Part shown: positions 55,801 through 61,800 of the stretch, one piece after another | How the letters are laid out: every line of letters begins with the position of its first letter | Position numbering within the stretch: position 1 is the stretch's first letter | Source: Octopus vulgaris | Lineage: Eukaryota | Length of the DNA: 64,000 bases | Assembly: GCA_951406725.2 (NCBI GenBank) | Contig: OX597830.1 | Location: 65,596,001 to 65,660,000, forward strand | Direction: 5' to 3' | Program-made: the position numbers and the translations under genes | Notes under the pieces: model-generated | Told to the model about the DNA's origin: nothing | What the model saw: the letters and a program-made list of their open reading frames with translations, nothing else | Database searches by the model: none

Positions 55801-58800
55801 ATAAATAAATATATATATATATATATATATATATATACCAGAGTAAGCACATAAATGTGAAACAAGGTGGAAAAAAGAGTACTCAAATACCAGAGGTAGA
55901 GTAATATGCTTTATTTAAAAGCAGCAGAAATATAACAAAAGCTGTTACTCAGCTATGTATATATGTATATATATATATGTATATGTGTGTGTGTATAATG
56001 AAGAAATAAGTGGGATAATTATCCCCTTATACAGCTCAACTGATTAGCGTTCTAAAAGAGCCTTAAGAATATAAAACCAAGAAGGAGAGAACAAATTTCA
56101 ATGGTCAGTGTTCATATTCACTCAATATATTTCAAAGCATCGGAATACTCCACAGCATACATAGATGTATTCATACACACAAGATACAATATAAAAATTT
56201 ATAAATATATAAAAATATGAAAAAAATATATAAATGTACTTGCGAGGTTGTATGTCCGTATTAAAATCAATGTTGATATTAAAATATGTGGATGGTGAAT
56301 GTGTTGTGGTAATCCAAATAGATGAGAGAGTTGGTATAAAATGATTTTAAAAGGTTTCTTGAGCAGTTGCAAAGTCTGAGAGCCATTTCATGAAGATATA
56401 GGTTGGAATGGACGAGTTAATTGATAGGTTGGAATTAACTCGCCTATAGTCCTTATATCTTGTGTATATGAATGCACCTATGTATGCTGTGGAGTATTCC
56501 GACGCTTTGAAATATATTGAGTGAATATGAACACTGACCTTTGAAATTTGTTCTTGCTTGGTTTTATATATATATGTGTGTGTGTATGTGTGTGTGTGTA
56601 TGTGTGTGTGTGTGTGTGTGTATGTGTGTGTGTGTGTATAATCATGCCAGTACTGAGAATAGACATTAAATGATAACGATGATATTTAAATCATCATCAT
56701 CATCATTTTACGTCCGCTTTCCATGGCATGGGTTGGATGGTTTGACAGGAGCTGACTAGTCAGAAGACTGCACCAGGCTTCAGTGTCTGTTTTGGCATGG
56801 CTTTTTACAGTTGGATGCCCTTTCTAACACCAACGACCCCTCTATTCAGTAATATATAGCCCGCAAAACTTTAAGTTATATGGAGCCAAATCAAACTGTT
56901 TAAATAATAATAATAATATATATATATATATATATATCTACATACATATATATATAGACAGACAAATTGATTGAGTTGGTGATACAGGAAAACATAACTC
57001 AAAACATGATCATATATATTTATTATTAACCAAGGGCGGGGACCTGGCAGAAACGTTAGCACACCGGGCAAAATGCTTAGCAGTGTTTCGTCTGTCGTTA
57101 TGTTCTGAGCTCAAATTCTGCCAAGGTCGACTTTGTCTTTCATCCCTTCGGGGTCGATAAATAAAGTACCAGTTTCGCACTGGGGTGGATGTAATTGACT
57201 TAATCCCTTTGTCTGTCCTTGTTTTTCCCCTCTGTGTTTAGCCCCTTGTGTGTAGTAAACAAATATATATTTATTATTAACCAAACTTTGGTAAGTGCCA
57301 GTGCACCTAAATCTTGTCCCTTTAGCTGCTCTGTAACTTCTGGTATATATATATATATATATATATATATATATACATACACACACACACACACATACAT
57401 ATATATATACACACACACATCATCTTCTGCCAAGTTATGATATGCAAAAAAAGAAATGAAACTCACTACTTCTGACTTCTTAGTTTTAATGTGTTGCTAC
57501 TGTTTACAATGTTGAACTACAACTTGCCATGGTACCAATTTATGGCCACTAAGAGCCAAGTGTTTTTTTAGCTCCAGACACAATGTGGTATTTCGTCTGT
57601 CGTTACGTTCTGAGTTCAAAATCCGCCGAGGTCGACTTTGCCTGTCATCCTTTCGGGGTCGATTAAATAAGTACCATTTGCATACTTAATCCGTTTGTCT
57701 GTCCTTGTTTGCCCTCTCTATGTTTAGCCCCTTGTGGGCAATAAAGAAATAAATATATATGAACCCCCTTGTAGCTTGACAACCTACTAAGTTGGCCTTC
57801 TAAACAGTATGCTTTCCATTGTTTTTCTTTTTTATAAATTTTGTTTGTGATCATTTCTGATTGATTGAACATTTTTTAATCTTTTATAGGATTTATATAA
57901 ACAAGTTTTAACACTTAGCAAAGAAGTCTGTTATTATCTTCACAAGGCCGAATCGTTTAAAGAACTTGCTCAAGATTTTGATATCCTTTGGAAATGTTAC
58001 CATTTTTATATATATTTTTTTTTACCGTTAGCACTTCGCATATTTGTTGCTTTATTTTTTTTTAAACAGTAAATTAGTCAAATGATGATGGACAGTATAC
58101 ATAATCTTTATAGGTCCCCTCAACCACAGCTGGCGTTAGAAAAGCTGATGACCTGCCTGGGTATCTGTAGAAAGGATCTTGTCCAAATGCTTGTTGCAGC
58201 AAAGTGCACTCCACTCAAAGCAATTACTGGTGATGTTAAGCCAAGTAATATGTTAAATCTACATGCGTGCCCTTCCTTTGCAAAACATTGTGCCTTTTTA
58301 ATCTCTTTATGCCAAAATGGTAAAACCTAGCTGTTCAATAAATAGAGATCATTAAAAATAATTTAGACTGAAATAAGTAGTGAACTTGATATGATCAACT
58401 ATAACCCTTCAAAGCTGTGCCCCAGCATGACCATATTCCAGTGATTTAAAACCAGTTAATTCTTTAGCATTCATCTTACTCTGGACCAGGCTGTGTGTTG
58501 TGTTCTCGAGCAAGACACTTTATTTCATGTTGCTCCAGTTCACTCAGTCGTAGAAATGAGTTGTGACATCACTGGTGCCGAGCTGTATCAACCTTTGCCT
58601 TTCCCTTGGATAACATCAGTGGTGTGGAGAGAGGGTGGGGGTGGAGGCTGGTATGCATGGGTGACTGCTGGTTTTCCATAAACAACCTTGCCCAGACTTG
58701 TGCCTCGGAGGGTAACTTTCTAGGTACAATCCCGTGGTCATTTATGACCAAAGGGGGTCTTTACCCTTTTGTATTAATCATGCCATTATCTCTTAGCTTT

Positions 58801-61800
58801 AAGATTTCAATGATGTGATTGATTATTTTTAGAATGATATTGTAGGGTAGGTGTGAAAGGCTGGATCTGGCTGGTTTGAACATTGAGCATGTAAAACATT
58901 TAGGCCAGATATGGCAAGTTTAAACACTAAAGGTTAAAGAATAAGACTATATCTGTTGTTACAGAAATTGAAAAGAAAATATCACAGCCTCTTTACCGAT
59001 CTATGAAAGACCTTCCTGTATTTAGTTCCCTTATATCCCTTTATGTTACAGTCTCCTGCATCTTTTGCTCCTTGCTAGATTGAGATAGTAAGAAGTGAAT
59101 GAATTACTAGGGTTGTTATGGCTGAGTAAATCTATTGAAGGTGGTGGTGGTGGTGGTGCCCAAGCAAAGCTGCAGATGATTGAGTAGAACCTGTGAACCT
59201 GTTAAAGAACCAAAGAACAAAAAGGAATTTTTTTTTCTGAATTTGATCTTAGTTCCTCTTAAGGAGGAAGCACTCCATCGGTTACGACGACGAGGGTTCC
59301 GGTTGATCCGATCAACGGAGCAGCCTGCTCGTGAAGTTAACGTGTAAGTGGCTGAGCACTCCACAGACACATGTACCCTTAACGTAGTTCTCGGGGATAT
59401 TCAGCGTGACATAGAGAGTGACAAGGCCAGCCCTTTGAAATACAGATACAACAGAAACAGGAAGTAAGAGTGAGAGAAAGTTGTGGTGAAAGAGTACAGC
59501 AGGGATCACCACCATCCCCTGCCGGAGCCTCGTGGAGCTTTAGGTGTTTTCGCTCAATAAACACTCACAACGCCCGGTCTGGGGATCGAAACCGTGATCC
59601 TACGACCACGAGTCCGCTGCCCTAACCACTGGGCCATTGCGCCTCCACCTTAGTTCCTCTAACAGTTTGGTAAACACAAATAAAACGATAAATATGTTCT
59701 TTAACTCCTTGTTTACAACAGATTATGCAGATGCTGTTCACAAAAATTGACTGTCCTTTTGTTTTCATGATGTCCAAGTCTGTAAGTAAATAAAATTTGA
59801 CAGTTTTCAAATTTTATTATTGTTATTCAAATAATGCCTGAGTTAACTTAACTTTTCATCTTTTTGGGTCAATTAACTATGGTACTAGCCAATGTTGTTG
59901 TTGTTGCTGCTGATTTTGTTGTTGTTGTTACTGCTGCTGCTGTTGTTGTTGTTGTTGTTAAGACAGCGAGCTGGCAGAATCATTAGCACACCATGTGAAA
60001 TGCTTCGCAATATTTCACCTACCACTACATTTTGAGTTCAAATTCCGCCAGGGTCAACTTTGCCTTTCATCCTTTCAGGGTCGGTAAATTAAGTACCAGT
60101 GAAACACTGGTATTAATGTAATCGACTATTCCCCTCCCTCAAAATGTCAGGACTTGTGCCTTTACTAAAAAGGATTATTATTATTATTAAAGCAGTGAGC
60201 TGGCAGAATCATTAGTACACCAGGCAAAATGCATTTTGTCCATCTTTACATTCTAAGTTTAAATTCTGTTGAGGTTGACTTAACCTTTCATCTGTTTGGG
60301 GTTGATAAATTAAGTACAAGTGAAATATTAGGGTCAGTGTAATTGACTAGCACTCTCCCCCAAATTTCAGATCTTTAGCCTATAGTAGAAAGGATTATTA
60401 TTATTATTATTATTCTGATGACAATGACGACAACGACAACGACGATGACGACTGCTTTACCAAGCTTGCTTGCATAGGTCAGATAGAAATTTTTGAAATA
60501 GATCTTTCTATTGCCAGGTGTCCGTCCTGTCATCAACTCTTGCTTGTTTCCAAACAAGGTAATATATCTTATGGTCAGGCATGTTTTTCTCAAAAAACTG
60601 GAGACAAACAGAGTTGCTTGTATGACAGTGATGCTCACCTACAACTATAACATAACGTCAAGACAAGGAAAAACACATATACATACATACATACATACAT
60701 ACATACACACACACACACACACACACACACACACACACACACACACATACATACATACATACATACATAAATAATAGGCTTCTGTGAGTTTCTGTCAACC
60801 ATATTCACTCACAAGGCTTTGGTTGGTTCAGAGCTATAATAGTATGCATCACTCTCAGAGGATACCTCAGGTGTACTCTGAAAATAATATCTTCTATTTG
60901 TAATAAAATTATGACTCTCCTTGGGGTGGGTCACGATTTTATTACCAAATGTTGGAAGGAAGTTGATTGCTAGATTTAGTAGATTATTGTACAAAACGCG
61001 TTGTTGTATTTGGTTACTTCCTTTGGAATTTCTAAATTCAAATCCTATCATTGACAACTTTGCTATTCATCCTTCCACTTGGTGTATCAAGAGATATTTT
61101 TCCCTGCAAAATTTGTTATAAGTCATTATTATAATCATCATCATCATCATCCATTTTTTAAAATCTGGGTTTTGTCCCTGTTAACAGGGGTGGCCGGATC
61201 TACCTCAGTGCCATAGCAACTGCTTTCACACCATCTTGCCATCTTGCCCCATTTTGGGTGTTCTTCCTTCTCAAGCCAACCCTCTCAATCTCCTCCTCCA
61301 CATGTGCCCCCTCCACATTTTCCTCAGTCTACCTCGCTTTTGCAGTCCATTTACCTCAAACCCTCCTCAGAACATGCTCCTTATCCCTCCTCAACATATA
61401 CCCATACCACCACACTCCATTCACCCTTGCCAGTTGTTCCACTGATTCCTCCAACCCCAGCATCCCCATCAAGTCCTCAGTCCTCCTCTTATCAAACAGC
61501 TTCACCCCACACATTTCTCGCACCATTGCTCTCCCAGTCCTCCCTCAAATACCATGTCTCACTCCCATACAGCATTGCAGTTCACACACATCTCCTATAG
61601 GCCCTTCCTTTCATCTTCAATGAGAACCCTTTCCCATATAACAACACTCCACATTCCCTGAATTTCACCCAGCCAAGTCTCGCTCTTGCCATCACAGCTG
61701 CTTCGCATCCACCACTTACATCCACCCTGTCTCCCAAATAACAAAACCCTCTCACCGTTTCCACTTGTCACATAGTGTTTCCACTGGTTCCACCAGCCCT

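Follow-up and report, generated by a model that had tools for sequence, protein, structure and literature searches.

An AT-AC intron with U12-type signals in the intron-rich furry gene of Octopus vulgaris

We analyzed a window of 64,000 nt from the Octopus vulgaris genome (assembly GCA_951406725.2, contig OX597830.1, positions 65,596,001 to 65,660,000 of the forward strand), which carries exons of a furry gene. The octopus genome has two furry copies, one intron-rich and one intronless; the intronless copy, of 2959 codons, is common to octopus and cuttlefish. Using this PF19421-positive paralog as tblastn query, we found that the exons of the intron-rich locus match its residues 33-2905 of 2959. 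Homology to the furry/FRY family is collinear over the whole protein including Fry_C, and the homologues carry the NCBI name furry; a PF19421 search of the genome, under a stricter first look, did not list the intron-rich locus. Of its 55 exon junctions, 45 could be resolved and 10, with exons missing between matches, were left out unclassified. GT-AG ends were present at 44 of the 45.

The junction considered here joins two coding exons on the + strand. Exon y (57890..57980, 91 nt) is entered in phase 0 through an AG acceptor at 57889 and left in phase 1, and exon z (59717..59781, 65 nt) is followed by a GT-AG intron at 59782-62322. Between them lies a phase-1 intron of 1736 nt (57981..59716) with AT and AC ends and, by its signals, of U12 type. 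Public assembled contigs from all four runs of a first set, taken from four studies, contained the joint 57980->59717. This joint can be slid by one base, but the slid form has non-canonical ends. In all three additional runs exon z started at 59717, and in both of the rows shown for them the loose flank at that position was the end of exon y. Exon y was covered by spliced contigs with no differing letters in the listed piece, each of the two exons is single copy in the assembly, and in the four-run set no contig depth fell on the unique parts of the intron, at bins 58080-58359 and 58990-59199. The comparison covered 8 of 24 candidate runs, with joints, loose ends and pieces taken among those listed; the runs are assembled contigs whose RNA origin is guessed, and they are blind to rare isoforms and to levels.

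The protein across the junction aligned without a gap over 117 columns to eight of eight furry homologues. When we aligned 1271 donor/acceptor pairs to the intronless paralog, 56 of them open in frame, AT 57981 with AC 59716 was the best pair, scoring 93. The best GT-AG and GC-AG pairs scored 65 and 75. An earlier note had seen no usable GT donor at exon y. GT dinucleotides do exist there (four in exon y and five in the next 100 nt) and some give open GT-AG pairs, but all of these pairs align worse to the paralog. It is most unlikely, in our view, that the intron is removed by the major spliceosome, whether it is handled as U2-type AT-AC or cut at some GT-AG pair close by. Sodium-channel genes do have U2-type AT-AC introns, and the octopus sequence offers a consensus-like GTAAAT donor at 58069. 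However, the sodium-channel introns have G at +5 (both points from the available part of PMC2831892), where the octopus donor has C; GT 58069 shifts the frame with both nearby AGs; and none of the listed joints connects exons y and z through a GT-AG pair. The intron 57981-59716 is real, has AT-AC ends and is cut at one acceptor in the transcript assemblies.

We then compared the intron signals with the minor snRNAs of the same genome, in which U11, U12, U4atac and U6atac genes are all present, each above its Rfam cut-off. The donor ATATCCTTT (57981..57989, + strand) fits the 5' splice site RTATCCTTT of the U12-type AT-AC subtype, and its positions +3 to +9 could form seven pairs, one of them G-U, with the 5' end of the octopus U11. 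The branch site TTCTTTAAC(TC) (59697..59707, + strand) could form ten pairs with the octopus U12, again including one G-U, leaving one A bulged at 59703 or 59704. It is one base off the consensus TTCCTTAAC, with T for C at the fourth base, which we read as the G-U pair. The claim that both sites are consensus sites was right for the donor and off by one base for the branch site. In DNA of organism E, a close relative, the branch site is unchanged. The branch motif is separated from the acceptor by 11 nt, nine of them pyrimidines, and the AC in use (59715..59716, + strand, supported by contigs) lies 12-13 nt past the bulged A, within the optimum of 11-13 nt given in the accessible part of PMC3584512.

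These motifs by themselves are not beyond chance. RTATCCTT occurs five times on the + strand of the 64-kb window; among 4916 sampled windows of 26 nt, 5.0% match the branch site in their pairing with U12; and duplex energy, which ranks the AT-AC intron first of 45, does so by a margin of only 0.1 kcal/mol and discriminates poorly. Apart from the one at 57981, the gene span has nine RTATCCTT motifs, none of which lies at a resolved exon end. It is the spliced contigs together with the gapless alignment that establish the intron. They bear out the earlier reading of a phase-1, U12-type AT-AC intron in the furry C-terminal domain, spliced to AC 59716, and its coordinates hold (G|ATATCCTTT from 57981, TTCTTTAAC at 59697-59705, the two ACs ending at 59716 and 59719, AG at 59721). 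Judged from these sequence features, the intron is likely removed by the minor (U11/U12) spliceosome. U11 and then U6atac would pair with the donor at 57981, U12 would pair with 59697-59707 leaving an A bulged, and the distance from the branch would set the acceptor, favoring AC 59716 at 12-13 nt over AC 59719 at 15-16 nt and AG 59721 at 17-18 nt.

A second AC (59718..59719, + strand) is exonic, lies within Glu-Gln codons 15-16 nt past the bulged A, and had been proposed as a tandem acceptor. The frame arithmetic behind this proposal was correct: AC 59716 is in frame, AC 59719 is in frame minus one codon, and AG 59721 shifts the frame and leads to a stop after nine codons. Of the two junctions suggested for checking, we saw 57980->59717 in the contigs and did not see 57980->59720. 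Exon z started at 59720 in none of seven runs, and in each run the depth in the boundary bins equalled that of one contig starting at 59717; public contigs drop rare variants, so that low-level use may escape them. That both ACs are used, giving furry isoforms one residue apart and possibly regulated, nonetheless seems very unlikely. The second site does keep the frame, alternative 3' sites, possibly errors, are reported for U12 introns (PMC3584512, in part), rare variants get lost in contigs, and TACAAC is unchanged in organism E, but this last constancy is that of coding bases in a close relative. Against tandem use, AC 59719 lies beyond the optimal distance, splicing to it would delete a residue and open a gap absent from all eight homologues, and the residues behind it differ among homologues. 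The part of PMC1874599 available to us gave no precedent for tandem ACs. In a sample of 11 exons, AC takes up 6% of the positions, so a further AC 3 nt on is unremarkable, and it is probably just a by-product of the exon z codons.

We next asked how old the intron is, using 93 short homologous proteins that are ORFs called on genomic contigs; the hits P0029 and P0048 were spurious. Six of the 93 end at the intron column, and all six continue with Y, H or C followed by I-L. The read-through of the octopus donor itself is D-I-L, and x-I-L is what a phase-1 U12 donor is expected to give, at a chance rate of 0.3-0.5% per case. The nearest furry is from a crinoid for four of these ORFs and from a gastropod or annelid for two (the furry tree was a quick tree). 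Their read-through residues imply a donor of AT type in the four ORFs that are echinoderm-like and of GT type in the two that are lophotrochozoan-like (annelid/mollusc-like); the six cases amount to only about two independent clades and are read from protein, not DNA. Five other proteins begin just after the junction, one of them an amphioxus gene model, which is too weak as evidence. On this indirect comparison the intron probably predates the mollusc-echinoderm split.

A new gain of the U12 intron in the octopus or cephalopod lineage would account for its absence elsewhere. Of the 93 short homologues, 56 continue past the intron column and end at the intron after it, a metagenome scan found the intron absent at four of four DNA loci from two organisms, and neither FRY nor FRYL is in one full human/mouse minor-intron list (PMC6717393, supplement file 1), so that the suggested check in vertebrates came out negative there. 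FRY, FRYL and furry are also absent from PMC11347168, which has E2F1, its table being one of responsive introns and not a full list. The supplements of PMC4066798 (two files, in which the control E2F1 was absent as well) and PMC6800510 (four files, searched without a control term) were uninformative, and the FRY strings in PMC12095793 and PMC6678158 are author names. A recent gain nevertheless appears highly improbable, given the x-I-L residues in all six ORFs broken at the same column, echinoderm-like and lophotrochozoan-like alike, and the very low rate of de novo U12 gain reported in the accessible parts of PMC3584512 and PMC10639083.

The intron also contains a high-copy, SINE-like insertion (59260..59648) of very high repeat depth, with a 12-nt target-site duplication on either side of it (59248-59259 and 59649-59660); a DNA contig of organism E, compared by eye, joins the flanks of this insertion. 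If the intron were retained, translation through the donor would run for 30 codons to an in-frame TAA (58070..58072, + strand), close to what the earlier note had predicted. We found no specific support for its further suggestion that minor-spliceosome activity gates the furry C-terminus, and a regulated switch of this kind is unlikely. A published model of U12 splicing as slow and rate-limiting (PMC3584512, in part) would suit it, and one of four runs, X10, has a low-depth contig that reaches into the intron. However, X10 has cover over the upstream GT-AG intron too, and intron cover on the donor side is absent in the other three runs. The intron is moreover missing from the furry genes of many animals and FRY/FRYL are absent from the human/mouse list, so furry does not require it, and a pan-eukaryote survey makes the case, in the part available, for a largely neutral evolution of minor introns (PMC10639083). 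A retained message would more likely undergo nonsense-mediated decay than yield a short protein, because the stop would still be followed by about 270 codons of the gene and by several junctions. Failed splicing would then probably mean less full-length furry through decay and no distinct short product, as in any minor-intron gene. We give little credence to a wider scenario in which coleoid furry is split between a copy with a subtype-switched Urbilaterian minor intron (gated, and gone from FRY/FRYL) and an ancient, ungated 9-kb intronless retrocopy, acting in different tissues or stages.

Overall, we regard it as highly probable that 57981-59716 is a phase-1 AT-AC furry intron excised to AC 59716, constitutive, likely removed by the minor spliceosome, and likely ancestral to bilaterians with loss or conversion elsewhere. 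This corrects the gene model at a junction where AT-AC ends have to be supported. Furry would join the genes with a minor intron in invertebrates, apparently not in human and mouse, and would be a useful example in work on how U12 introns are lost or switch subtype, most of which starts from human introns. Reading x-I-L at ORF breaks on genomic contigs could serve as a cheap finder of orthologous U12 donors, and the paralog pair provides a natural contrast of furry with and without a predicted dependence on the minor spliceosome. Knowledge of minor splicing itself is unchanged.

The octopus furry intron is an ordinary member of a well-known class, the U12 AT-AC introns. Like the intron of human and mouse E2F1 (GCG|ATATCCTTG, PMC6717393) it has a ATATCCTT donor, and it shares with the class a branch site 12-13 nt before the AC, a non-zero phase, and its occurrence as the one such intron, among the resolved junctions, in an otherwise GT-AG gene. 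It differs in the T for C at the fourth base of the branch site and in its host, the vertebrate orthologs FRY and FRYL being absent from the listed U12 hosts (PMC6717393). Switching between AT-AC and GT-AG subtypes at orthologous positions is described for 36 clusters in the available part of PMC2831892. The furry case resembles it in the AT donors implied for octopus and four ORFs and the GT donors implied for two, here from protein read-through alone. Tandem acceptors of the NAGNAG kind are a known class as well; octopus furry is like them in having two in-frame acceptor dinucleotides 3 nt apart but differs in that only the first is seen in use (the second in none of seven runs). Error-prone choice of U12 3' splice sites is reported (PMC3584512, in part), but the second octopus acceptor was not seen used. 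Within the Furry/FRY/FRYL family (Pfam PF19421, Fry_C), octopus differs by its pair of an intron-rich and an intronless copy.

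A search of the 2.8-Gb genome with Fry_C led not to the C17 locus in the window (G000:C17:65596001-65660000) but to an unbroken furry ORF of 2959 codons on another contig, C25 (G000:C25:19254343-19263222), which lacks introns and is collinear with every exon of the spliced gene. This ORF served as a natural yardstick for judging exon joins and, used as a query, revealed an intron-rich furry gene on the + strand, running from ~68 kb upstream of the window to 10 kb downstream. We tested 55 junctions and left 10 with missing exons out of the classification; the 45 resolved ones comprised 44 GT-AG introns and one AT-AC intron. 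The latter (57981-59716, phase 1) separates two furry coding exons on the + strand, exon y (57890-57980) and exon z (59717-59781). The longest resolved furry intron spans 15.6 kb (34380-50017), and additional exons could be hidden in its poorly conserved region.

The earlier note had claimed a U12-type AT-AC intron with tandem AC acceptors at 59716 and 59719, and its coordinates and translations were correct on re-examination. Of 1271 donor/acceptor pairs tried (GT, GC or AT with AG or AC), 56 were open in frame. AT 57981/AC 59716 scored highest against the C25 paralog (93), followed by AC 59719 with 84; the top GC-AG and GT-AG pairs reached 75 and 65, respectively. The 117-residue stretch spliced at AC 59716 aligned without gaps to 8/8 homologues, three gastropods among them. 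RTATCCTT occurs five times on the + strand of the window, and the branch-site duplex energy was equalled in 5.0% of 4916 sampled windows, so the motifs by themselves do not prove an intron.

Splicing data came from contigs assembled from 8 of 24 sequencing runs, none on record as RNA; such contigs carry no level information and drop rare variants. A single contig joins 57980 to 59717 in 4/4 runs from four studies, skipping 1736 bases with AT..AC ends, and unique intron bins have zero depth in the runs with this joint. Exon z is covered (59717-59781) in 3/3 further runs, one under a second organism code, and in the two rows listed the loose flanks of its contigs consist of the last bases of exon y and the first bases of the exon starting at 62323. 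Boundary-bin depth matches a single contig starting at 59717 in each of 7 runs (e.g. 120.4 x 5/8 = 75.2), hence there is no second contig starting at 59720 or 59722. The predicted join of 57980 to 59717 was found in 4/4 runs and that to 59720 in none, among the joints listed and in contigs rather than reads, and tandem use of AC 59719 was not borne out in 7 runs of contigs that drop rare variants. Exons y and z are each single-copy in the assembly, so the joins are not accounted for by a processed pseudogene. Together, the gapless alignment and the joint in 4/4 runs confirm a real AT-AC intron, of U12 type by its signals and with a single working acceptor in these contigs.

The genome encodes U11, U12, U6atac and U4atac, all above Rfam cut-offs (5 matches for U11, 2 for U12 and 1 for U4atac). 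At least 43 U6atac-like copies on many contigs exceed the cut-off and are probably retrocopies. Donor positions +3 to +9 are able to form 7 pairs, including one G-U, with U11 of this genome. Similarly, 59697-59707 can form 10 pairs with the genomic U12, one of them G-U, leaving a single A bulged. This A is 12-13 nt upstream of AC 59716, 15-16 nt upstream of AC 59719 and 17-18 nt upstream of AG 59721. The optimum distance is 11-13 nt according to the available part of PMC3584512, so the predicted acceptor is the one observed. From sequence we infer that the minor spliceosome would excise 57981-59716, with the acceptor set by distance from the bulged A. The intron has C at +5, which speaks against a U2-type AT-AC intron, a class with G at this position (PMC2831892, available text). 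The second AC (59719) arises from Glu-Gln codons at which residues vary among homologues; AC makes up 6% of exon positions. The accessible text of PMC7367187 confirms a bias against phase 0.

Retention of the intron leads to a stop after 30 codons, ~270 codons short of the protein end. From what is established about such stops, this one should set off decay of the message. The earlier note proposed that splicing gates the furry C-terminus; a specific sign of a regulated gate did not emerge. Low-depth cover in run X10 enters the AT-AC intron and likewise the GT-AG intron upstream, with none entering the AT-AC intron in the other 3/4 runs. Overall, the observation in the earlier note was confirmed and its reading supported in part. 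The intron would place C17 furry under minor-spliceosome dependence, like any gene with such an intron.

A 389-nt high-copy insertion with a 12-nt target-site duplication on either side (59248-59660 in all) ends 36 nt upstream of the U12 branch site. It appears to be absent from the DNA contig of organism E, a close relative, and AT-AC splicing is intact despite it. In the 44 resolved GT-AG introns, the first 80 nt hold 3/5 RTATCCTT motifs (0.17 expected by length); with this limit, picked after the data were seen, three or more were reached in 10/5000 shuffles. Upstream of the window, the motif lies 67, 27 and 20 nt past GT donors at window-relative positions -55743, -6862 and -5426. These motifs may be what is left of converted U12 donors, may bind U11, or may be due to chance.

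Homologue searches returned 93 proteins of at most 270 residues, of which many look like ORFs predicted from genomic contigs of animals and running on into introns. The U12 junction column is where six stop, and the next intron where 56 do; 22 continue, 5 begin just past the junction and 4 lie elsewhere. All six ending at the junction column go on as Y-I-L (one), H-I-L (three) or C-I-L (two), and the C17 gene's own read-through is D-I-L; x-I-L is expected from N|AT ATC CT or N|GT ATC CT in phase 1. By chance, such read-through occurs at 487 of 183991 positions in locus DNA, and at 53 of 10917 following any GT. The nearest furry is that of the crinoid Anneissia for four of the six (54-75% identity) and of a gastropod or annelid for two, giving about two independent clades. 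This distribution is indirect evidence that a U12 donor at this position, in AT and GT subtypes, probably predates the protostome-deuterostome split; subtype switching is already known (PMC2831892, in the part available). Against such an age, the AT-AC intron was absent from the outside DNA recovered (4 loci, 2 organisms), where the next intron is kept. The suggested vertebrate counterpart was not found: FRY and FRYL do not occur in 8 supplementary files of PMC6717393 on human/mouse minor-intron genes, which include E2F1 and MAPK1. Five furry fragments (P0047, an amphioxus gene model, and P0032, P0035, P0061 and P0062) start a few residues past the junction column, and may be models or ORFs broken by the same intron.

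One furry copy of the genome shares 98.9% identity with a protein of Octopus bimaculoides, from which an octopus source is deduced. A quick tree covering 13 proteins places the intronless C25 copy, with support of 100, in a group with proteins from O. bimaculoides, Argonauta and Sepia; the sister group, likewise within molluscs, is the C17 gene (1920 columns filled, the rest X) plus one further protein. This grouping points to a ~9-kb retrogene predating the octopod-cuttlefish split, with intronlessness known from the C25 copy alone. It is likely an old coleoid retrogene, unusually long, and possibly of greater interest than the AT-AC intron. Among the literature matches listed, none for furry with octopus and retrogene terms concerned an intronless copy, and none for furry/FRY with minor-intron terms a furry U12 intron. 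The available part of PMC10639083 describes a survey that included Sepia along with two species of Octopus, and according to it minor introns are abundant in molluscs; an ortholog of the furry AT-AC intron may already be within its per-intron data.
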